Source: Nanopusillaceae archaeon (GTDB lineage: Archaea > Nanobdellota > Nanobdellia > Nanobdellales > Nanobdellaceae). From it: DNA of 28,936 nt. Position 1 is the first letter of the stretch; each line of letters begins with the position of its first letter. The DNA is taken from assembly GCA_049973735.1 (NCBI GenBank), contig JBMFJL010000003.1, positions 1 to 28,936 of the forward strand, written 5' to 3'. The notes beneath the pieces are model-generated. The model ran no database searches and was not told where the DNA came from. It was given only the letters and a program-made list of their open reading frames with translations. The position numbers and the translations under genes were made by a program. Shown piece by piece: positions 1 to 19,990 of this stretch.

Positions 1-869
1 TATGCTTTCTGCACACCATATACTATATGTATTATATCCGAAATAGAATCCAAGAACAGTAAATCATGATCTATGATCACTATTGAATCGTTTTCTTTTA
101 AATCATTTAAACTATCAAGTATTCTTAATCTTTCATATATATCAAGGTAATTTGTTATTTCATCTATTAACAAAAGATTGTGCTCTTTATTTATTGTATA
201 AATATATATTACCTTTTGTAATTCTCCACCTGACAAATTTTCAATTTTTCTATCCAAAATATTTTTTATTTCAAATTTTTCAGATGTTTCATCCAGATTT
301 TTTACAACTTTTGATAAAAAGTCCCTAACTGTCATATCCTTAAACATTTTTCTTATTTGAAGTATATTTTGTGGTTTATATGATATCTTCACTTCATTAC
401 TATATAATTTTTCAAAATATTTTTGTAGTTCTGATCCTCTAAAAAATCTAATTATTTCTTTATCTTCAAATTTTTTATTAAATTCTCCGAAATTTGGTCT
501 TAATAATCCTGCTAATATGTTTATCGCTGTACTTTTTCCCATTCCATTTCTACCAATTATTCCAACAACACCCTTTTCCTTTATAATTGGCAGTTTATAC
601 AATCTAAATGTATTTGGTCCATATTGAAATACTGGCTTTTCATCAGGTTCTTTTACAAGATTTATAATTATTATAGCATTGAAAGGACATTTTTTAACAC
701 AAATACCACAACCAATGCAATAACCCTCATCTATAGCAGGTTTTTTATCTTGTAAAATGCTGAATATCTTTATATTATTTTTTTGTATTGGACAGACTTT
801 CATACATATATAATCACATTTTTCAGGAGCCTTACATCTATCCCTATCAATTACTGCAATTCTTTTCAT
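1..869 (-). CDS. ABCE1 / RNase L inhibitor-type ABC ATPase (ribosome recycling factor), N-terminal part. The CDS starts at 869 and runs off the window at 1.
   Basis: My own minus-strand translation from the ATG at 869-867 gives MKRIAVIDRDRCKAPEKCDYICMKVCP...CIGCGICVKKCP (two 4Fe-4S cysteine clusters). It continues with Walker A GIIGRNGMGKST, signature LSGGELQK and Walker B LLLIDE. It is absent from the ORF track because it has no stop in the window. Its ATG overlaps the upstream gene's TGA stop (ATGA, 866-869). Confidence 0.9.
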   Translation of the reverse strand, partial: MKRIAVIDRDRCKAPEKCDYICMKVCPIQKNNIKIFSILQDKKPAIDEGYCIGCGICVKKCPFNAIIIINLVKEPDEKPVFQYGPNTFRLYKLPIIKEKGVVGIIGRNGMGKSTAINILAGLLRPNFGEFNKKFEDKEIIRFFRGSELQKYFEKLYSNEVKISYKPQNILQIRKMFKDMTVRDFLSKVVKNLDETSEKFEIKNILDRKIENLSGGELQKVIYIYTINKEHNLLLIDEITNYLDIYERLRILDSLNDLKENDSIVIIDHDLLFLDSISDIIHIVYGVQKA

Positions 870-2671
870 TCTAATTTTATTTCTATTTTCTTATTTGTAT
901 TTATTGCATCCTCTATAATTTTACCTATATCGCTATCTCTGTCAAAAACAACATTTCCCTTTTTATTTGTTTTAAATTTCCCTATTAATTTACCTCCAAC
1001 AAAAATATTAACTGTTCTCTTTTTAAATAAGCTATTCAATTTGATAACAATATTTTTATCCATTATTTCATATTCATATGGTATAGAACCTTCAGTAACA
1101 CTTTCCAATGGTTTTATATCAATTCTTATTCCATATTTATCTCTTAAACTCAGCAAGTAAGATCTTTCATATCTTACAAATTTCTTTTTCATATTTCTAG
1201 GAACATAAAATGTTATCTTATCCAACTCAACATCTACAATAATATCATTATATCTTCTCCTAAAATCACTATTCAATATATCTTCCAAGTATTTTTGTAT
1301 ACCTATTTTCCTTGATACTTTTTTAACCGGTATTACCATTATTTCCTCACCAAATGTATATATTTCATATTCTATCTGGTTTGTATAAAAATCTCTAACT
1401 TCAACAACTGGTCTAGCTAGATCTTCCTCCTTTAATCCATGTGGTGTTTTAACTGTCAAATTCAAATAATAAACTTTCTCTACATTTCCCTTATCAATAT
1501 ATATTATCGTATCTATTATTTGTGGAATCAAACCAAGATCTGTTCTAGATAAGAATCTATGTATTATATCTATTGGTCTTTCAGCATGAGCTACACCAAC
1601 CATACCAATACCGGCAAGTCTAAGATCTATATATATTTTGAAGTCATCTGTATTTCTCATTTCATCAAAAATAACATAATCTGGTCTTGATAATAATAAA
1701 ATATCGTGTAATTCGTTCTTATCAGAAGCATTTTTAGAATATTGGATTATATCTTTTGGTAATAATAAATCTCTTGGTGCTTCTATTGTTTTTACTATCT
1801 TATTTTGGGATAGATAAAATTCTGCTAATGCTTGTGCAAATGTTGTTTTTCCAGAACCTGGTTTTCCAACAATAATTATACCCTCTGCCTTTTCCTTCAA
1901 TCTATTTAATAATTTTTCCGGTAATTTGTAATCTTCTATTCTTAATACTTTCGTTGGCCTTACTATAGTTATTTCATAACTATCTGATAAAGGTGGCTTT
2001 ACAATTACAATCCTTAATAAACCAATTTGTACTATAATACTGTCTCTTCTTTCCTTTTCTATGAAAGAGTCTGTCCTATTTCTTGAAATATACAATATTT
2101 CATCTATAAGATTTTCTATTTTTTCTCTATCATATATTATGTCGATTTCTTCTAAAAACCATTCTCCTGGTTTTCCTCTCTTTCTTTTTACTCGAACTCC
2201 CTCTATAATATGGACTGATATTGTATCATCTGTAAATAAATTTAAAAATGAAGGATTTTCTACAGAGAAATTTTGTTTTTCTATATAAATACATTTTACA
2301 TTATATGCTTTTGCAGTTTCATATAATATTCTATCTGATGTTATCAGAACAGCATTATTTTCTATTGCTATCTTCATAATTAGATAATCTATATATCCTG
2401 ATTTAGCTAGTTTTATTTGCTCTAAAGTTGGCTTTTCACCATAAATATGTACTTTAAAGCCATAAATTTCTGATAATTCTCTTATTTTTTGCACCTCCTT
2501 TAGCCCAATAATCCCTTTTTCTAAACCTTTATTAGCCTGAGCTTGTAATTCATCCAAAGCTGGCAAAGGAATTATAACCTCTTTTACAGATATTTTATTA
2601 TTTTGTAAAGATTCTGATAAAAATCTATCTATTAATATTGAAGTATCTAAAACTACTTTATCTAAGTTCAT
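866..2671 (-). CDS. PIN-domain / PilT-family ATPase with a C-terminal KH-like region (archaeal COG1855-type). Probably RNA-related, not a pilus motor.
   Basis: 601 aa. The N-terminal VLDTSILIDR... is PIN-like. Walker A is GKPGSGKTT, followed by a FDEMR Walker B-like motif. Domain order matches the conserved archaeal PIN-ATPase-KH protein, recognised from memory. Confidence 0.7.
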   Translation of the reverse strand: MNLDKVVLDTSILIDRFLSESLQNNKISVKEVIIPLPALDELQAQANKGLEKGIIGLKEVQKIRELSEIYGFKVHIYGEKPTLEQIKLAKSGYIDYLIMKIAIENNAVLITSDRILYETAKAYNVKCIYIEKQNFSVENPSFLNLFTDDTISVHIIEGVRVKRKRGKPGEWFLEEIDIIYDREKIENLIDEILYISRNRTDSFIEKERRDSIIVQIGLLRIVIVKPPLSDSYEITIVRPTKVLRIEDYKLPEKLLNRLKEKAEGIIIVGKPGSGKTTFAQALAEFYLSQNKIVKTIEAPRDLLLPKDIIQYSKNASDKNELHDILLLSRPDYVIFDEMRNTDDFKIYIDLRLAGIGMVGVAHAERPIDIIHRFLSRTDLGLIPQIIDTIIYIDKGNVEKVYYLNLTVKTPHGLKEEDLARPVVEVRDFYTNQIEYEIYTFGEEIMVIPVKKVSRKIGIQKYLEDILNSDFRRRYNDIIVDVELDKITFYVPRNMKKKFVRYERSYLLSLRDKYGIRIDIKPLESVTEGSIPYEYEIMDKNIVIKLNSLFKKRTVNIFVGGKLIGKFKTNKKGNVVFDRDSDIGKIIEDAINTNKKIEIKLE

Positions 2672-9030: not shown

Positions 9031-9975
9031 ATGATTAATAAAGAATTACTAAATATTTTAATTAAAAAAATTGAAAATATTAGAAGAGAAAATATTGAAG
9101 TTTCAAAATTTAAAGAAAAAATAAAAACTATTAATATTGACAATGTTGCTATAAGGGAAAAAAGAGAATTCGCTTTTATAGATTCTTCTTATATAAACGG
9201 TATAATAGGCCCTTATGCGTATATATATGCTAAAGCAGTGATTACTGGAGAAAAAGTATATGAAGAAATTAGAGATATAGAAGTTATTCCAAGTATATTT
9301 ATTTCTTCTAAAGAAGCAAATCATGATTTATCCCAAATTTCTTCACTTGTTGCAAAAAATCTAGAATATATTCTCGCTAAAAAATATAGTAACAAATATA
9401 TTTTTATAGATGGTTCAATAATTTCTGACGGAGTACTATTGTCTCAATTTAGCTATGAATTAGATGAAGAAAATATAGAAAGAATAAGAAAGAATTTTGC
9501 TGAAAATTTTGTTTACATGATAGAAAAAGGTAAATTATTAGCAATAGCAAAGAGGATATTAAATCTGAAAATATTTGATCATGAAAATAAAAGAATTTCA
9601 GATTTTCAAATATTGTTGAATATTTTCCCAAAAGAAGTATTTTACACAGAAATAATTGAAAAAAATTTAGGTGAAATAATTAAAATAAAAAAGGAAGAAG
9701 GAAAAATTATTTTTTATAATAAAAACATATACTTTATATATTTTAGAACTAGACCAGAAGATCATATATATAGGATAGAAGCTATAGATAACATAAGTAA
9801 AGAAGAATTTTTAGAAATTGTAAAAGAAAATATATATTTAAATGCCTCTTATCCAAGATATTTAAAATTGTCTCATAATCTATGTAAAATAACAAATAAA
9901 GAAAAAACCGCAATAGAAAGATTTATGAAAAAGTATTTGGGATATTCATATACCTCTGGTTGGGAAACTCATTAG
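9031..9975 (+). CDS. nurA: NurA-like nuclease (putative)
   Basis: 314 aa. Two aspartate-containing motifs, FAFIDSSY near the N-terminus and NKYIFIDGSIISDG, are spaced as in NurA (VDGS ... LLDGSL). An acidic NLEYILA segment lies between them. The assignment is from memory of the family, not a search. Confidence 0.45.
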   Translation: MINKELLNILIKKIENIRRENIEVSKFKEKIKTINIDNVAIREKREFAFIDSSYINGIIGPYAYIYAKAVITGEKVYEEIRDIEVIPSIFISSKEANHDLSQISSLVAKNLEYILAKKYSNKYIFIDGSIISDGVLLSQFSYELDEENIERIRKNFAENFVYMIEKGKLLAIAKRILNLKIFDHENKRISDFQILLNIFPKEVFYTEIIEKNLGEIIKIKKEEGKIIFYNKNIYFIYFRTRPEDHIYRIEAIDNISKEEFLEIVKENIYLNASYPRYLKLSHNLCKITNKEKTAIERFMKKYLGYSYTSGWETH

Positions 9976-10048
<73 letters not shown>

Positions 10049-10077: not shown

Positions 10078-11727
10078 TTAACCTATATATATCTGCGGCA
10101 TAACTCCATTTGGTGGATATGCTCTAGCAACTACCCATTGTATATATTGAGTAGAACTATGTGCACCATCAGATGCACTTATTTGTAATGTAGGATATCT
10201 GAATGGATTATAATTAATTGTTGAATTAATTGACATATATAGTGGCAAATTTCTATACATATTTAGTAAAGTTAAAGGTGTCCATACGTTACTAGAACTA
10301 TAGAAATAATAACCTGTTTCTGTATATGTACTATTTAAAATAAAATATGCGTAGATTGTTTGACTAACAACATTTCTAGCAGTACTAGAATATACCTTAC
10401 TTGCTAATGTTTGGTTAGTAACAACAGATTTTATCATAGAATACCATCCCCAGTAATAATAATATCCATTTTCTGCAACAGTAGAATAATTTGGTATTGT
10501 CTCAAAATCTGGTGAACCAGATCCTACAGAACTAGAAGCAACCTGTTGGCTTGTATTTCCAAATAAAGATATAGCATTTATTTCATTAGTATAATAAACA
10601 TAAAATGCTTCTTCAACTATCATAGGAATCATTGGTATATTCCAATTATTATATGGTAAAATATATGTTGCTTCTCCCCATACACCATTTGTCATCTGTA
10701 TACCACTTGAAGTGGCTACAGGAGTGAATGAATTTACTGCAGTAGGGGATTGATAACCTATCCATCCATCAAATGTATTATTAAAGTATCCATAAACTAT
10801 AAATACATATTTTCCATTATCATATTTTCTCGAAGGATCTATTTGTGGAGACAAACCTACATATGGATAATATTGTTGATAATAGTTTGTAGAAATATTA
10901 TCTATACACATATAAATTGTAAAATTGCTATTTGCAGGAATTCCTTGAGAAATATTTATCCACCAGATTTTACAACTAGTAGAACCACTAGTATAAATAC
11001 CTTCATACCATGAATAAATATTTGGTGTTCCATATGTTGTAAAATAAACATTTGATCCATTTAATGTTATTAAATTAAACAATGTAGCATTATTTATGTA
11101 AGCAAAATTGCTTCCTAAACTTACTGTTCCATTACATATTGCAATTTGTTGTTGAAATGGTGCAGGAGTTGGAATATTTTGCGTATTATACAATTTTAAT
11201 GGTATTGTGTAAGTTGATAGACAGCTTTTACCTACATTATTATCGGACAAATTAATCTGAAATACTGTAGGTGGTTTAAAATAATCTATAAAAGGATTAG
11301 AGATATAATTTATGTCGAATTCCGCAATTATATTGTTAGATAATCCTATTAGTATGCTATATTTTCCTTCTTGATTTAAAGGTATTTGTGATAGATTTGC
11401 AACAATTAATAGTAATTGATTTTTTGACGGATCTACAATTACACTATTTGAATTATATGGTATAACATTAACCAATCTATTATTAACTATTGCGAATACT
11501 TGAGATGCATTAACAGGCTCAGATGGTTTTACATATACAAACAAAGTATTATTTTGTATAAAATAATCTAGTATCTGAAAGTTCAATGATAAAGATTTTG
11601 AAACTCCATATGCTGTAGGAACCGGCGTATTTGTATTTTTTATTACAATATTTGTCAATAACAATAATAAGATAGTACCAGTAGCTATTAACATTAATGT
11701 AGCAAATAAAGCATTTTGTAGTTTCAT
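10078..11727 (-). CDS. Large membrane-anchored or secreted N/Y/S/T-rich surface protein. Has a pilin-like N-terminal helix and a possible DUF2341/LamG-type lectin-like region.
   Basis: 549 aa. The N-terminus is MKLQNA-LFATLMLIATGTILLLLL. I counted about 16 N-x-S/T sequons by hand. The segment CKIWWINISQGIPANSNFTIYMCI...GKYVFIVYGYFNNTFDGW recalls DUF2341/concanavalin-like domains (from memory). It is the last gene of a three-gene operon. Confidence 0.5.
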   Translation of the reverse strand: MKLQNALFATLMLIATGTILLLLLTNIVIKNTNTPVPTAYGVSKSLSLNFQILDYFIQNNTLFVYVKPSEPVNASQVFAIVNNRLVNVIPYNSNSVIVDPSKNQLLLIVANLSQIPLNQEGKYSILIGLSNNIIAEFDINYISNPFIDYFKPPTVFQINLSDNNVGKSCLSTYTIPLKLYNTQNIPTPAPFQQQIAICNGTVSLGSNFAYINNATLFNLITLNGSNVYFTTYGTPNIYSWYEGIYTSGSTSCKIWWINISQGIPANSNFTIYMCIDNISTNYYQQYYPYVGLSPQIDPSRKYDNGKYVFIVYGYFNNTFDGWIGYQSPTAVNSFTPVATSSGIQMTNGVWGEATYILPYNNWNIPMIPMIVEEAFYVYYTNEINAISLFGNTSQQVASSSVGSGSPDFETIPNYSTVAENGYYYYWGWYSMIKSVVTNQTLASKVYSSTARNVVSQTIYAYFILNSTYTETGYYFYSSSNVWTPLTLLNMYRNLPLYMSINSTINYNPFRYPTLQISASDGAHSSTQYIQWVVARAYPPNGVMPQIYIG

Positions 11728-11739
11728 ATTATATTTAAA

Positions 11740-12186
11740 CTAACTTACATATATTAAAGTTTGAAACCTATTTCCATAACAACTTAATAGCACTATATAA
11801 TTCCAAGAAGCATTCTTTAAATATATATTAGGAAAAGTTATGTTTGCATCTTCTCCAGGTAATAGCAAATTAGAAGGATATAATTGATTTACAGAATAAT
11901 TAAAATTTACAATAAATCCATTTACATATAATCTAAAGCAAGATAAATCCAAAACTTTATTTCCATTATTCAATATACTTATATTTGGAGATAAATAGCT
12001 TGTTTGGTTATTCAAAAATTTTATGTTTTCTCCAACCGTGTTTCTAACTCCATTAATAATTGCATAAGCAGTATTATTAAAATTGCTATACATATTTGTT
12101 AATATTGTATATAAAACATACATAGAGACAATAAAAACAAAGAAACTTGCTATAGCTCCAACTAAAGATCCTGTATCAGATCTCAT
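11740..12186 (-). CDS. Pilin/ArlF-ArlG(FlaF/FlaG)-like small surface protein
   Basis: 148 aa. The N-terminus is MRSDTG-SLVGAIASFFVFIVSMYVLY. The body, ISILNNGNKVLDLSCFRLYVNGFIV...LLPGEDANITF, resembles the beta-sandwich of FlaF/FlaG-type proteins. It has multiple N-x-S/T sequons and an ATGA overlap with the upstream gene. Confidence 0.5.
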   Translation of the reverse strand: MRSDTGSLVGAIASFFVFIVSMYVLYTILTNMYSNFNNTAYAIINGVRNTVGENIKFLNNQTSYLSPNISILNNGNKVLDLSCFRLYVNGFIVNFNYSVNQLYPSNLLLPGEDANITFPNIYLKNASWNYIVLLSCYGNRFQTLIYVS

Positions 12187-12662
12187 TTTACAATACAGGT
12201 ATTAGCAGTAGTATTTACATAAATAATATTTTGAGCAAATGCACCACTATCTGCTACAACCTTTATTTGATAAAAATCTGTTCCTAAACTAATGTTTGAA
12301 ATTATTACAATGGTATCATAAGGTCCCCAAACTTGTGTACCAGTATAACTATATGCAATCCTGACAGTTTTATTATTTACTAATACTCCATTAACAAAAA
12401 ATTGCGTTAAGTTTTGATTTAATATATTATTTCCTCTATTTGTGACATATACATATAATAAATTTGTGGTACTATTGTATGCACATGAATCAATTGTAAT
12501 ATAAGTTTGTAGCATATTTTGTAATGATTCTGCATTTGCATATGCGGCATTACTTATTTTATTTAAACTATTATATGCAGAAGATATTAATATGTACGAA
12601 GCAACAGCAGCAACTATAAATAGTATAACCTCAACTATTATTGTACCAAACTGACTTTTCAT
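12183..12662 (-). CDS. Pilin/ArlF-ArlG(FlaF/FlaG)-like small surface protein
   Basis: 159 aa. The N-terminus MKSQFG-TIIVEVILFIVAAVASYILI has a Glu at +5 after the putative Gly cleavage site. The body contains LLYVYVTNRGNNILNQNLTQFFVNGVLV. Sequon-rich. Confidence 0.5.
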   Translation of the reverse strand: MKSQFGTIIVEVILFIVAAVASYILISSAYNSLNKISNAAYANAESLQNMLQTYITIDSCAYNSTTNLLYVYVTNRGNNILNQNLTQFFVNGVLVNNKTVRIAYSYTGTQVWGPYDTIVIISNISLGTDFYQIKVVADSGAFAQNIIYVNTTANTCIVK

Positions 12663-12693
12663 TATAAATTAGAGTTTATTAAAAAATATAAAA

Positions 12694-13509
12694 TTATTCT
12701 TCTAACTCGTATCCATCAATTCCTCTTTCTCTTACAATTTTTCCCCATTCCAAGATTTTTTCTTGTCTTTTAATTTCGTTTTCAACAATTTTATCCATTA
12801 TTTTTAAATTTTGAACACCCTTTATTTCTACTTTTTCTCCACCTTCTATCGATATATTAAGATCTTGTCTGATTGTACCCAAACCTCTCTTTACCTTACC
12901 AGTTAATCTAAGTATTAATCCTATATATTCAGCTATTTCTTTTACTTCTTGAGGATTTGTCATATCAGGGCCTGTAGATATTTCAATTAGTGGTATTCCC
13001 AGCCTATCTAATCTATAAATAATATATTTTTCACCTTCTTCTATTTTTCTTGCGGCATCCTCTTCAATACATATTGTTTGTATCGTTATTTCTTTATTTT
13101 TATACTTTATTTTTCCGTCTAAAGCTAATAGTAATGTTCTTTGAAATCCAGAAGTATTAGATCCGTCTACTACAATTTTTCTCATAACTTGTAATACTTT
13201 TGGAACATACATGTTAAAGTATGTAGAAATTAGTAGTCCAAATTTTAATGCTTCTAAGTTTATTAGATGTGGTGGTTCTTCATCAAGTTCTACCAAACAA
13301 GAATATTCATTAGAATACTCATATATGTATAGTTTATCTTTCATTGTTTCATATTCTGCAGCTACATCTTTTTTTCCAATTTCACTCTGTGTTACCCTTA
13401 GTTTTCTTTCTATTCTATGAGTATAATTATCGAAAAGCTCTGTTGGACATGAACAGAACAACTTTTCTTTGGTATTTAGTTGTTGATGTATCTCTAAACC
13501 AGCTTTCAT
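12694..13509 (-). CDS. gatE: Glu-tRNA(Gln) amidotransferase subunit E, N-terminal catalytic (cradle) domain only: a split or truncated gatE
   Basis: 271 aa. GLEIHQQLNTKEKLFCSCPTE, RKLRVTQSEIGKKDVAA, VELDEEPPH, VDGSNTSGFQRT, IEEDAARK, RLGIPLIEISTGPDM and KRGLGTIRQDLNISI all match GatE. Full-length GatE is about 600+ aa. The ORF stops where the AspRS-like insertion domain would begin. Confidence 0.85.
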   Translation of the reverse strand: MKAGLEIHQQLNTKEKLFCSCPTELFDNYTHRIERKLRVTQSEIGKKDVAAEYETMKDKLYIYEYSNEYSCLVELDEEPPHLINLEALKFGLLISTYFNMYVPKVLQVMRKIVVDGSNTSGFQRTLLLALDGKIKYKNKEITIQTICIEEDAARKIEEGEKYIIYRLDRLGIPLIEISTGPDMTNPQEVKEIAEYIGLILRLTGKVKRGLGTIRQDLNISIEGGEKVEIKGVQNLKIMDKIVENEIKRQEKILEWGKIVRERGIDGYELEE

Positions 13510-18580: not shown

Positions 18581-19990
18581 ATGGTAAATAAAGATATTTT
18601 AGTGATAAATGAAAAAAGCAATATTGCAATATCCACTTTATGGAGTAGAAAAGAAAGTATATTATTAAAGTTACCAGAAGATGTAAAGAATAAGATATGT
18701 GTTATAGGGACAACATATACATCATATGGTGTCAATTTTGTAATTGAAACGCTTGCTAAATATCCTAGTATAGATACTTTAATACTTTATGGAGCAGATT
18801 TGTCTACTTCTGGAAGTGCTTTATATGAAATCTTTCATAATAAAAATCTAGAGGGTCAAAAAATAGTTTTACCGAAAGATAAAATAATAGAAATAATAAA
18901 AACTGTTAAATTGATAGATTTGAGGGAAGAATTCAAGAAAGGCAATATAGAAAAATTAATAGAGGAAATAAACAAAAATTATAAGGAGGGAGTTAAAGTT
19001 AGAGAATTAGTAGATGTAAAAATTGAAGAAAAAGCAGAGTTAAATAGTTGGCCAATACCAATTTCTGGCTACTTTGTATATGAAACTTCTCCATTTAGAG
19101 CCTGGATAAAAATACTAGATAATATAATGAAATTTGGATATATAAAATATTCTGAATATGATGAACCACAGAAGGAATATTTGAACATCATGGTAACAAT
19201 AGGTCTATATGGTAGAGAATATAAAATAGAAGAACAGTTTTTTGAATTTATTGATGCAAAGGAATTTGAAAAACATATAGAAGAGGTTTTATCTCCATAT
19301 AAACCAGAGGGTGTAGAATATACTTATGGTAGTAGACTTTTTTCACATGAAGTTATTGGAAACCAGATTGAATTTATAATAGACAAACTGGCTAAATCTC
19401 CATATACTAGGAGAGCTGTAGCAATTACTTGGAATCATATAGAAGATACAAAATCAACTAATCCCCCATGTATTGTTTCTGTTCAGGGAATAATCAGTGG
19501 AGATTATTATAATCATACAGTTTGGATTAGAAGTAATGATATGGTAAAAGGATGGCCTGTAAATATAGTAGGTCAAATAGAGCTTGCAAAATATATTGTG
19601 AATAGAATTAATGAGAAGACAAAAACAGAATTTAAAGTCGGTACAGTAACTACCATATCAACCTCTGCACATATATATAAACATGATTGGGATTTAGTAA
19701 AAGAAATATTAACAAAATATTCTTATAGGATGAAGGAATTTGTTGAAGATCCAAAAGGAAACTTCTTAGTATATCATGATGAAGATAAAGTAACATTAGA
19801 GCATAGAACGCCAGATATGTCTATAGTAGATTACAAAATATCTTCAAGGAATTTCTGGGAAATATATAATTCCTTAAAAGGTGGTTCTTTCTTTACATTG
19901 TATGACCATGCATTATATCTTGGAAAAGAGATAAAAGCAGCATTTGAAAAATTGAAAAGAGGAGAAAAATATGTACAAGATGAAGCTTAG
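18581..19990 (+). CDS. thyA: ThyA-family thymidylate synthase-like enzyme fused to an N-terminal MtrA/DUF4346-like domain of about 150 aa
   Basis: The C-terminal half has the ThyA active-site set: YTRRAVAITWN, NPPC (catalytic Cys), IRSNDMVKGWPVNI and SAHIY. N-terminal residues about 15-85 (IAISTLWS...ICVIGTTYTSYGVNFVIETLAKYPSIDTLILYGADLSTSGSAL) resemble the MtrA-like motif ([42 protein letters not shown]). The ATG follows the nrdJ stop directly. Confidence 0.7.
   Translation: MVNKDILVINEKSNIAISTLWSRKESILLKLPEDVKNKICVIGTTYTSYGVNFVIETLAKYPSIDTLILYGADLSTSGSALYEIFHNKNLEGQKIVLPKDKIIEIIKTVKLIDLREEFKKGNIEKLIEEINKNYKEGVKVRELVDVKIEEKAELNSWPIPISGYFVYETSPFRAWIKILDNIMKFGYIKYSEYDEPQKEYLNIMVTIGLYGREYKIEEQFFEFIDAKEFEKHIEEVLSPYKPEGVEYTYGSRLFSHEVIGNQIEFIIDKLAKSPYTRRAVAITWNHIEDTKSTNPPCIVSVQGIISGDYYNHTVWIRSNDMVKGWPVNIVGQIELAKYIVNRINEKTKTEFKVGTVTTISTSAHIYKHDWDLVKEILTKYSYRMKEFVEDPKGNFLVYHDEDKVTLEHRTPDMSIVDYKISSRNFWEIYNSLKGGSFFTLYDHALYLGKEIKAAFEKLKRGEKYVQDEA

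Follow-up and report, generated by a model that had tools for sequence, protein, structure and literature searches.

What do three adjacent genes, encoding two small pilin-like proteins and one large lectin-like protein, do in a nanoarchaeon? We addressed this question for a stretch of 28,936 nucleotides (nt) from a Nanopusillaceae archaeon (GenBank assembly GCA_049973735.1, contig JBMFJL010000003.1, positions 1 to 28,936; this whole stretch is called the window below). Its minus strand carries three consecutive open reading frames (ORFs) of 159, 148 and 549 amino acids (aa), here called genes 1, 2 and 3 (Table 1). An earlier sequence-only reading had taken them for an operon of pilin- or ArlF/ArlG-like proteins with prepilin-type signal peptides, and had not recognized the set as a described system. 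Our analysis indicates that genes 1 and 2 are the ArlF and ArlG of this lineage, and that gene 3 appears to be a third paralogue joined to a lectin-type domain. The reading that we favour, with evenly balanced confidence, sees in the triad a stator or anchor module of ArlF/ArlG type, extended by a third, lineage-specific subunit; the lectin domain of this subunit would grip the glycosylated envelope.

The ORF listing confirmed the gene layout first proposed for this locus: genes 1 and 2 share 4 nt (ATGA), and a gap of 12 nt separates the stop codon of gene 2 from the ATG of gene 3. Because conserved orthologues of each ORF are found in related genomes at 50-99% identity, genes 1-3 are taken to be real genes. 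The source lineage is a terrestrial nanoarchaeote of the Nanopusillaceae (Nanoarchaeota).

Curated profiles place the small proteins in the ArlF/ArlG family. Gene 1 scores 38.6 bits against Pfam PF01917, which passes the gathering cut-off of 29.5, and its best NCBIfam matches are ArlF (57.6 bits) and then ArlG (36 bits), without reaching the equivalog cut-off of 110; the gene-1 orthologue of Nanoclepta and other gene-1 orthologues show the same ranking, ArlF first and ArlG second. The sole named NCBIfam match of gene 2 is ArlF, at a weak 19.2 bits, and this weak match recurs in 6/6 members of the gene-2 family (best E 7.7e-5). ArlF is the top match for every member of both small-protein families. 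When the gene-2 and gene-1 families were aligned with hhalign, the score was 83% at first and 95.7% (E 8.7e-9) with more diverse alignments, and gene 2 appears to be a divergent paralogue of gene 1. The sizes of the two proteins fit the ArlF/ArlG plan, in which an N-terminal helix leads into one archaellin domain, a beta-sandwich, for a total length of about 130-170 aa. The shared motif that had originally suggested this family, N.GN..L......F.VNG, occurs in gene 1 (NRGNNILNQNLTQFFVNG), and gene 2 has a close approximation of it (NNGNKVLDLSCFRLYVNG ... LLPGED). The resemblance to FlaF/FlaG seen in the sequence is therefore borne out by the PF01917 match of gene 1, by the ArlF matches and by hhalign. 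Sequence searches of the PDB with each protein and with the family profiles found no FlaF/FlaG entry; they gave weak matches to archaellin N-terminal helices for gene 1 and chance matches to haemagglutinin for gene 2. The FlaF/FlaG chains solved in the PDB lack the N-terminal helix.

Public annotations already connect these genes to the archaellum. Gene-1 homologues are labelled 'archaellum component FlaF' by JGI/IMG, as is one gene-2 orthologue, and the supplement of Wurch et al. (2016; PMC4935971) lists the gene-1 orthologue of Nanopusillus acidilobi, Nps_03420, as 'putative archaeal flagellar protein G', arCOG01822, which is the archaellum-specific FlaG group of published censuses. In the complete genome of the cultivated N. 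acidilobi 7A (CP010514.1, L015, 8001-8920) the gene 1/2 orthologues are split across frames by three apparent frameshifts within 1 kb, and the annotation of the split gene consists of the 90-aa fragment Nps_03420; these frameshifts are either sequence errors or decay in culture.

The relatives of the source organism do build archaella. Free cells of Nanobdella aerobiophila swim and bear archaella (PMC11104419), YN1 has archaellum-like filaments together with FlaBDEHIJF genes (PMC11420986), and Makarova et al. counted one FlaF and one FlaG in the nanoarchaeote Nst1. Terrestrial Nanoarchaeota possess arl genes without the traditional cluster, and in related genomes the remaining archaellum genes (ArlB, D/E, H, I, J) lie at other sites. 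Wherever the matter has been tested, archaellation requires both ArlF and ArlG (PMC10117864). In the N. aerobiophila genome, Kato et al. found only ArlB/H/I/J by homology, and reported archaellin-like predicted structures for MJ1_0772/0773 (bioRxiv 10.1101/2023.10.27.564410); these two are the orthologues of genes 1 and 2. Because the relatives are archaellated, ArlF and ArlG are essential where tested, and class III signals are lacking, we conclude that genes 1 and 2 are the natural ArlF/ArlG of the lineage. Given that the gene-1 orthologue stands as FlaG/FlaF in published tables, the two count as known archaellum components and not as a new system.

It is instructive to compare the locus with the ArlF/ArlG pair of model archaea (S. 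acidocaldarius ArlF 4P94, ArlG 5TUH, complex 5TUG), two pseudo-periplasmic proteins that bind to one another as well as to the S-layer and are regarded as the likely stator or anchor. In both sets the proteins are small and monotopic, combine an N-terminal helix with a beta-sandwich of the archaellin type, are encoded by two adjacent genes, have no class III motif and carry N-glycosylation sequons; gene 1 passes PF01917, and ArlF and ArlG are the best named matches. In contrast to the model pair, the genes here lie outside an arl cluster (arl genes are scattered in these genomes), score far below the equivalog cut-offs, retain a pilin-like Gly ... Glu(+5) in gene 1, and always have a third paralogue attached, which is found in no model archaellum.

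These scores could alternatively reflect the fold that archaellins and pilins share, the triad belonging to a non-archaellar type IV filament system or forming an independent short surface fibre, an explanation that we consider unlikely. Every ArlF/ArlG score lies under its curated cut-off, weak matches to UpsA, BasA and GspG accompany those to ArlF and ArlG (gene 1 versus GspG, E 0.09; NCBIfam), PF01917 also spans archaellins and related pilins, and the very name of arCOG03871, 'Pilin, FlaG/FlaF/PilA family', illustrates a blurred boundary; yet ArlF leads the matches throughout both small families, and the published censuses put the gene-1 orthologue in the archaellum-specific arCOG01822. Two type IV filament systems besides the archaellum have been reported in Nanoarchaeota, N. 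aerobiophila bears a second, rough appendage 15 nm wide, and the ATPase/platform pair close to the triad of Nanoclepta could be of either the ArlJ or the UpsF kind. If the triad served such a system, however, the archaellated relatives would be left without the essential ArlF/ArlG pair.

The N-termini indicate whether the proteins resemble prepilins. Genes 1, 2 and 3 begin MKSQFGTIIVEVILFIVAAV, MRSDTGSLVGAIASFFVFIV and MKLQNALFATLMLIATG, in each case a short polar stretch followed by a hydrophobic helix, and this layout had been read as a class III (prepilin) signal peptide. With a FlaFind-type pattern, which we take to be [KRDE][GA][ALIFQMVED][ILMVTAS]x3, the motif was found in 0/3 window proteins, where MKSQFG/T, MRSDTG/S and MKLQNA/L have F, T and N at position -2; across the families it occurs in 1/12 members for gene 1, 1/8 for gene 2 and 0/15 for gene 3. 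The prepilin reading of the window proteins is thus not supported. ArlF and ArlG characteristically lack class III signal peptides (PMC10117864), and for MJ1_0772/0773, the orthologues in Nanobdella, Kato et al. report no detectable signal peptide (bioRxiv 10.1101/2023.10.27.564410), so that the missing motif is as expected for uncleaved anchors of the ArlF/ArlG type. The Glu at +5 after Gly noted earlier in gene 1 is real: Gly-6 and E11 (window 12632-12647, codons 6-11) are invariant in nine Nanopusillaceae homologues, and the same bacterial-pilin-like pattern is present in the distant lineage of metagenome contig L019 (180-653), 'MRSQFGLIVLE'. Gene 1 of Nanoclepta (L017, 7103-7564) begins MRGFSTII, a canonical class III site, and gene 2 of L019 begins MKGQSII. 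Because Gly-6/Glu-11 is invariant and the Nanoclepta protein starts in this way, atypical processing of the gene 1 product stays conceivable.

These same features enter the main rival reading of the triad, somewhat unlikely in our estimate: pilin-like proteins capped by an adhesin that form a priming or tip complex, located at the archaellum tip or along the filament and showing its lectin to host glycans, comparable to bacterial minor pilins with PilY1 or to GspI-J-K. In essence it restates the proposal of a host-attachment structure made in the sequence-only reading. Gene 1 with its invariant G6 and Glu(+5), and the Nanoclepta and L019 starts given above, would suit such a complex, as would the loss of filament assembly upon loss of ArlF or ArlG, which is not required of a pure stator; Makarova et al. 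read two small pilin-like proteins and a large DUF2341 protein as the pilus-tip adhesin of archaeal clade-1 type IV pili. The type II secretion system pseudopilus tip GspI-GspJ-GspK and type IV minor pilin sets also comprise three pilin-fold proteins in a row, of which the last carries an additional domain, and are needed to start filament assembly, as are ArlF and ArlG. They have no sequence relation to the triad beyond the weak GspG match of gene 1 (E 0.09), and the triad has no prepilin motif; the likeness is an analogy only. The window N-termini are without [KRDE][GA], and a Gly or Ala site is missing from all 15 homologues of gene 3, which argues against a tip complex, as do the periplasmic, uncleaved ArlF/ArlG of model organisms and the several lineages that carry gene 3 without any adhesin domain.

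The new part of the locus is gene 3, genes 1 and 2 being already annotated in public resources. Its AlphaFold model (predicted local distance difference test, pLDDT, 76) consists of a helix (aa 2-31), a seven-strand sandwich (50-140), a disordered linker (143-170) and a large beta domain (173-536). The N-terminal module (N-module) is the best-conserved part, with pairwise identities of 0.8-0.9; over their full length, orthologues of gene 3 are 54-80% identical. Aligned to the gene-1 family with distant orthologues included, the N-module scores 96.1% in hhalign (E 3.7e-9, 119 columns), compared with only 43% for shallow alignments; directly against the gene-2 family the score stays weak (24%), and the ArlF/ArlG profiles PF01917, NF052590 and NF052591 gave no direct match to it. 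Because the N-module aligns to the gene-1 family at 96.1%, gene 3 appears to be a third ArlF/G-family paralogue fused to a lectin-type domain. The proposal that the large protein repeats the small-protein module thus agrees with both hhalign and the helix plus 7-strand sandwich of the AlphaFold model. Assignment of the N-module by structure alone was dropped, since FlaF appears in Foldseek at E ~1e-2 amid generic immunoglobulin (Ig) domains. The 16 N-x-S/T sequons counted by hand in gene 3 proved exact; shuffles of the same composition contain 10.4 +/- 2.9, so that the enrichment is modest. In the literature we found no description of the third paralogue, its lectin fusion or the conserved triad: Kato et al. 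do not mention MJ1_0774, and the sole archaellum-related paper found to mention DUF2341 deals with pilus loci. The earlier view that this gene set is not a described system therefore holds for gene 3, the fusion and the triad, but not for genes 1 and 2, which are annotated as FlaF/FlaG (IMG; PMC4935971).

Is gene 3 a partner of genes 1 and 2, or just their neighbour? Twelve Nanopusillaceae loci (Nanopusillus, Nanobsidianus, Nanobdella, YN1) have HSP20 / GatE-N / gene 1 / gene 2 / gene 3 / NurA in this order, with the triad genes overlapping or abutting. Within the Nanopusillaceae alone this adjacency is weak evidence, because the whole block is syntenic in the family. The pattern-based genome scan reached only this family, and distant lineages came from an exhaustive profile search with the gene-3 N-module, which returned 11 proteins among 1.84 billion representatives, a tiny, lineage-specific family; none of its matches was traced to the non-archaellated N. 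equitans. In Nanoclepta minutus, a 153-aa PF01917 protein and a 146-aa protein are followed by a 463-aa 'DUF2341 domain-containing protein', with overlapping reading frames and with flanks (SecY/L34e/L14e and glycogen phosphorylase/ProRS) wholly unlike those in the window. Metagenome contig L020 has the same triad with a gene 3 of 763 aa and a double DUF2341, and in three further lineages (L019, L022/L023 and L024) gene 3 is a stand-alone protein of 134-138 aa, without a lectin domain, that directly overlaps the gene-2 orthologue. The full 1-2-3 order is present in contigs L019 and L020, and the short contigs L022-L024 show the gene-2/gene-3 pair. Hidden Markov models trained only on Nanopusillaceae sequences find every orthologue where it is expected. 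Triad conservation, left by the sequence-only reading as a point to check, thus extends over the 12 Nanopusillaceae loci and Nanoclepta minutus, and the triad appears to be an old conserved unit of Nanoarchaeota to which the lectin domain was added later.

A further explanation would make gene 3 functionally unrelated to genes 1 and 2: another nanoarchaeal surface lectin, lying beside arlF/arlG by inherited order. The family-wide synteny of the HSP20/GatE/.../NurA block, where adjacency proves little, and the occurrence of the lectin domain in several other architectures scattered among housekeeping genes are compatible with this. However, the N-module itself looks like an ArlF/G-family paralogue, and gene 3 overlaps or nearly abuts gene 2 in lineages with wholly different flanks, even where it has no lectin domain; we regard this explanation as very improbable.

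The C-terminal part of gene 3 resembles lectins in its predicted structure. Foldseek searches of the PDB with this domain returned ERGIC-53 (3whu), VIP36 (2dur) and the pea and peanut lectins (E 4e-6 to 1e-4, target template modelling (TM) score 0.5-0.65); the top 50 matches are L-type lectins almost throughout, and the model has pLDDT values of 85-95 over most of aa 310-480. The C-terminal ~380 aa are thus predicted to adopt an L-type-lectin jelly-roll fold. The likeness of this putative lectin to ERGIC-53/LMAN1, VIP36 and the legume lectins of pea and peanut (E 4e-6, target TM about 0.6) is one of predicted fold: identity is 8-13%, and the domain here spans ~380 aa, with long insertions, compared with ~230.

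Sequence comparisons relate the same domain to DUF2341 (PF10102). The window protein has no Pfam match, PF10102 being absent at E <= 1; orthologue P0036 scores 30.2 bits over a short stretch (cut-off 23.4), the Nanoclepta orthologue 86.7 bits and P0142 129.9 bits. The Nanopusillaceae lectin-domain alignment matches bona fide DUF2341 regions, those of P0144 and P0142, the Nanoclepta orthologue included, at 92.2% in hhalign (E 5.8e-7, 139 columns), over a stretch that covers the DUF2341 core 'WV.vP.IPAN.n.tIY.YyGN', and a segment that had been singled out by eye, CKIWWINISQGIPANSNFTIYMCI, aligns with this core in the Nanoclepta orthologue. Together with the Foldseek lectins, these alignments agree with the DUF2341/concanavalin-like character first suggested for this part of the protein, which appears to be a divergent DUF2341 domain. 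The DUF2341 proteins of archaeal type IV pilus loci (arCOG03508) and PilY1-type tip adhesins share with gene 3 a large DUF2341/concanavalin-like domain encoded beside small pilin-like proteins. They differ in that the domain here is fused behind an ArlF/G-like module, neither alone nor after a class III pilin N-terminus, in that the window protein no longer matches PF10102, and in that its partner is ArlF/G and not a pilus ATPase/TadC locus.

The lectin module is widespread in Nanopusillaceae (290 matches), where it follows pilin-type N-termini (MKSISPII...) or Sec-type signals, or forms part of further architectures. One pilin-type lectin paralogue, P0064, is a lone gene amid housekeeping genes, a context that is uninformative. 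In N. aerobiophila, MJ1_0776 (1320 aa, pectin-lyase-like; L001, 14086-18048), two genes downstream of the triad, holds the conserved N-terminal part of the lectin domain (tblastn, domain aa 7-139). Within gene 3, identity among orthologues falls to 30-60% over the second, C-terminal half of the lectin domain (aa ~326-525, nt 10153-10752), versus 80-90% in the N-module, and some orthologues have wholly different C-terminal halves behind near-identical first 320 aa, a pattern that suggests cassette-like recombination or diversifying selection. A hypervariable, mosaic lectin half would suit the tip complex considered above, as would the excess of non-synonymous single-nucleotide polymorphisms in Nanoarchaeota surface proteins (PMC6142677) and the unexplained thorn-like decorations of N. 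aerobiophila archaella.

We nonetheless favour an ArlF/ArlG stator or anchor with a third, envelope-gripping subunit. In its favour are the family matches of genes 1 and 2, the lack of other ArlF/G candidates in the archaellated relatives, the paralogy and constant adjacency of gene 3, and its narrow distribution; ArlF-S-layer binding provides a published precedent for envelope contact. According to this reading, the triad would be a conserved operon encoding those components of the nanoarchaeal archaellum that are anchored in the membrane and lie outside the cytoplasm. ArlF and ArlG would come from genes 1 and 2, the N-module of gene 3, a paralogue specific to Nanoarchaeota, would join their assembly at the archaellum base, and the flexible linker would allow the glycosylated lectin domain to reach outward and hold glycans on the S-layer or envelope of the same cell, which is heavily N-glycosylated. 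The motor would thereby gain a fixed anchor that, by analogy, takes over or reinforces the S-layer contact made by ArlF in Sulfolobus. That gene 3 belongs to the archaellum, where it is placed and what it binds are inferences; the observed features are the family membership of gene 1, the paralogous relation of genes 2 and 3 to gene 1, the lectin fold, and a gene order kept across lineages with unrelated flanks.

Several observations weigh against this reading. The NCBIfam scores are far under the 110-bit equivalog cut-offs (57.6 for gene 1 and 19.2 for gene 2), the naming of gene 1 conflicts, being F in NCBIfam and JGI and G in arCOG, and in Foldseek S. acidocaldarius FlaF (4p94) ranks 5 and 8 for the N-module (E ~1e-2), no better than generic Ig domains. 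The window is free of other arl genes; the FlaI-like ATPase and short ArlJ/UpsF-like protein closest to the Nanoclepta triad are 5.5 kb away from it, with scores under the cut-offs; and none of the three proteins was detected in the N. acidilobi proteome (PMC4935971 supplement). The lineages with a lectin-less gene 3 mark the lectin as an add-on, and its reuse in several surface-protein architectures, including pilin-type ones, marks it as a general surface module. Finally, the strong mosaic variation of its C-terminal half would be more natural for an exposed surface that meets hosts or viruses than for a housekeeping contact to the S-layer of the same cell.

A bolder proposal, quite unlikely in our view, concerns the appearance of the N. 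aerobiophila archaellum, which cryo-electron tomography shows to have a 76-nm 'corrugated tube' at its base in addition to the unexplained thorns. Gene 3 might polymerise via its ArlG-like module, with the lectin domains outward, to form this tube or the thorns, a structure that would have no counterpart in other archaella, and the variable lectin face might double as a first sensor of host glycans.

The features of the locus are collected in Table 1. Upstream of gene 1, TTTATATT could be its own promoter, giving a leaderless transcript, with the caveat that A/T strings are frequent at 25% G+C. A tRNA-His gene (9975-10047, minus strand) lies on the same strand, 30 nt 3' of the gene 3 stop, after short oligo-T tracts.

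Table 1. Positions in the window of the three genes, the parts of gene 3 and the upstream spacer.
Feature	Position	Strand	Description
Gene 1	12183..12662	(-)	159 aa; ArlF/ArlG-family; hydrophobic N-terminal helix and archaellin-type beta-sandwich; G6, E11 conserved
Gene 2	11740..12186	(-)	148 aa; apparent divergent ArlF/ArlG-family paralogue
Gene 3	10078..11727	(-)	549 aa; apparent third ArlF/G-like paralogue fused to lectin-like domain
Gene 3 N-module, aa 1-142	11302..11727	(-)	membrane helix aa 2-31 and 7-strand Ig-like sandwich aa 50-140 (AlphaFold)
Gene 3 linker, aa 143-170	11218..11301	(-)	pLDDT <50; S/T/N-rich; length varies, indels of 0 to ~40 residues among orthologues
Gene 3 lectin-like domain, aa 171-549	10081..11217	(-)	predicted divergent DUF2341-class L-type-lectin/concanavalin-like jelly roll; conserved end RAYPPNGVMPxIYIG
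Spacer 5' of gene 1	12663..12693	(-)	31 nt, A/T-rich; TATA-like TTTATATT ~23-30 nt before ATG

The window, with a G+C content of 25%, otherwise carries scattered housekeeping genes, among them those for ribosomal proteins, Cdc6, the PolD small subunit, ribonucleotide reductase, NurA and a GatE with GatB_N only. Profile scans found no ArlH/I/J, PilB/C or prepilin peptidase among the window proteins, which confirms the earlier statement that the window has no assembly ATPase, platform protein or prepilin peptidase. The 601-aa product of 866-2671 (minus strand), which has the window's only T2SSE-type match, was rejected as an assembly ATPase: it combines PIN and T2SSE-type ATPase domains, scores 662 bits against NCBIfam PRK13764 and is a PINA-like Holliday-junction branch-migration ATPase. 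The GatE gene (12694-13509, minus strand) is a 271-aa ORF with the GatB_N catalytic domain alone, 269-271 aa long in all relatives, and may represent a split or truncated GatE. Directly after the ribonucleotide reductase gene, an ORF of 469 aa (18581-19990, plus strand) joins a partial thymidylate-synthase domain to PterinBD-DUF4346.

ArlF and ArlG are so far only a 'potential stator' that would hold the archaellum still against its own torque, and a constant third paralogue would offer a testable candidate for the contact with the envelope. This paralogue appears to have gained its lectin domain in Nanopusillaceae and Nanoclepta. The triad fills the ArlF/G gap in the published annotation of N. 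aerobiophila, and MJ1_0772-0774 become named candidates for the corrugated proximal segment and the thorns in this cultivated organism. If gene 3 does polymerise there, a motility organelle would be physically coupled to host recognition in an obligate ectosymbiont. The DUF2341-type lectin module, expanded on several kinds of surface protein and subject to mosaic variation, is relevant to the host specificity of these symbionts.

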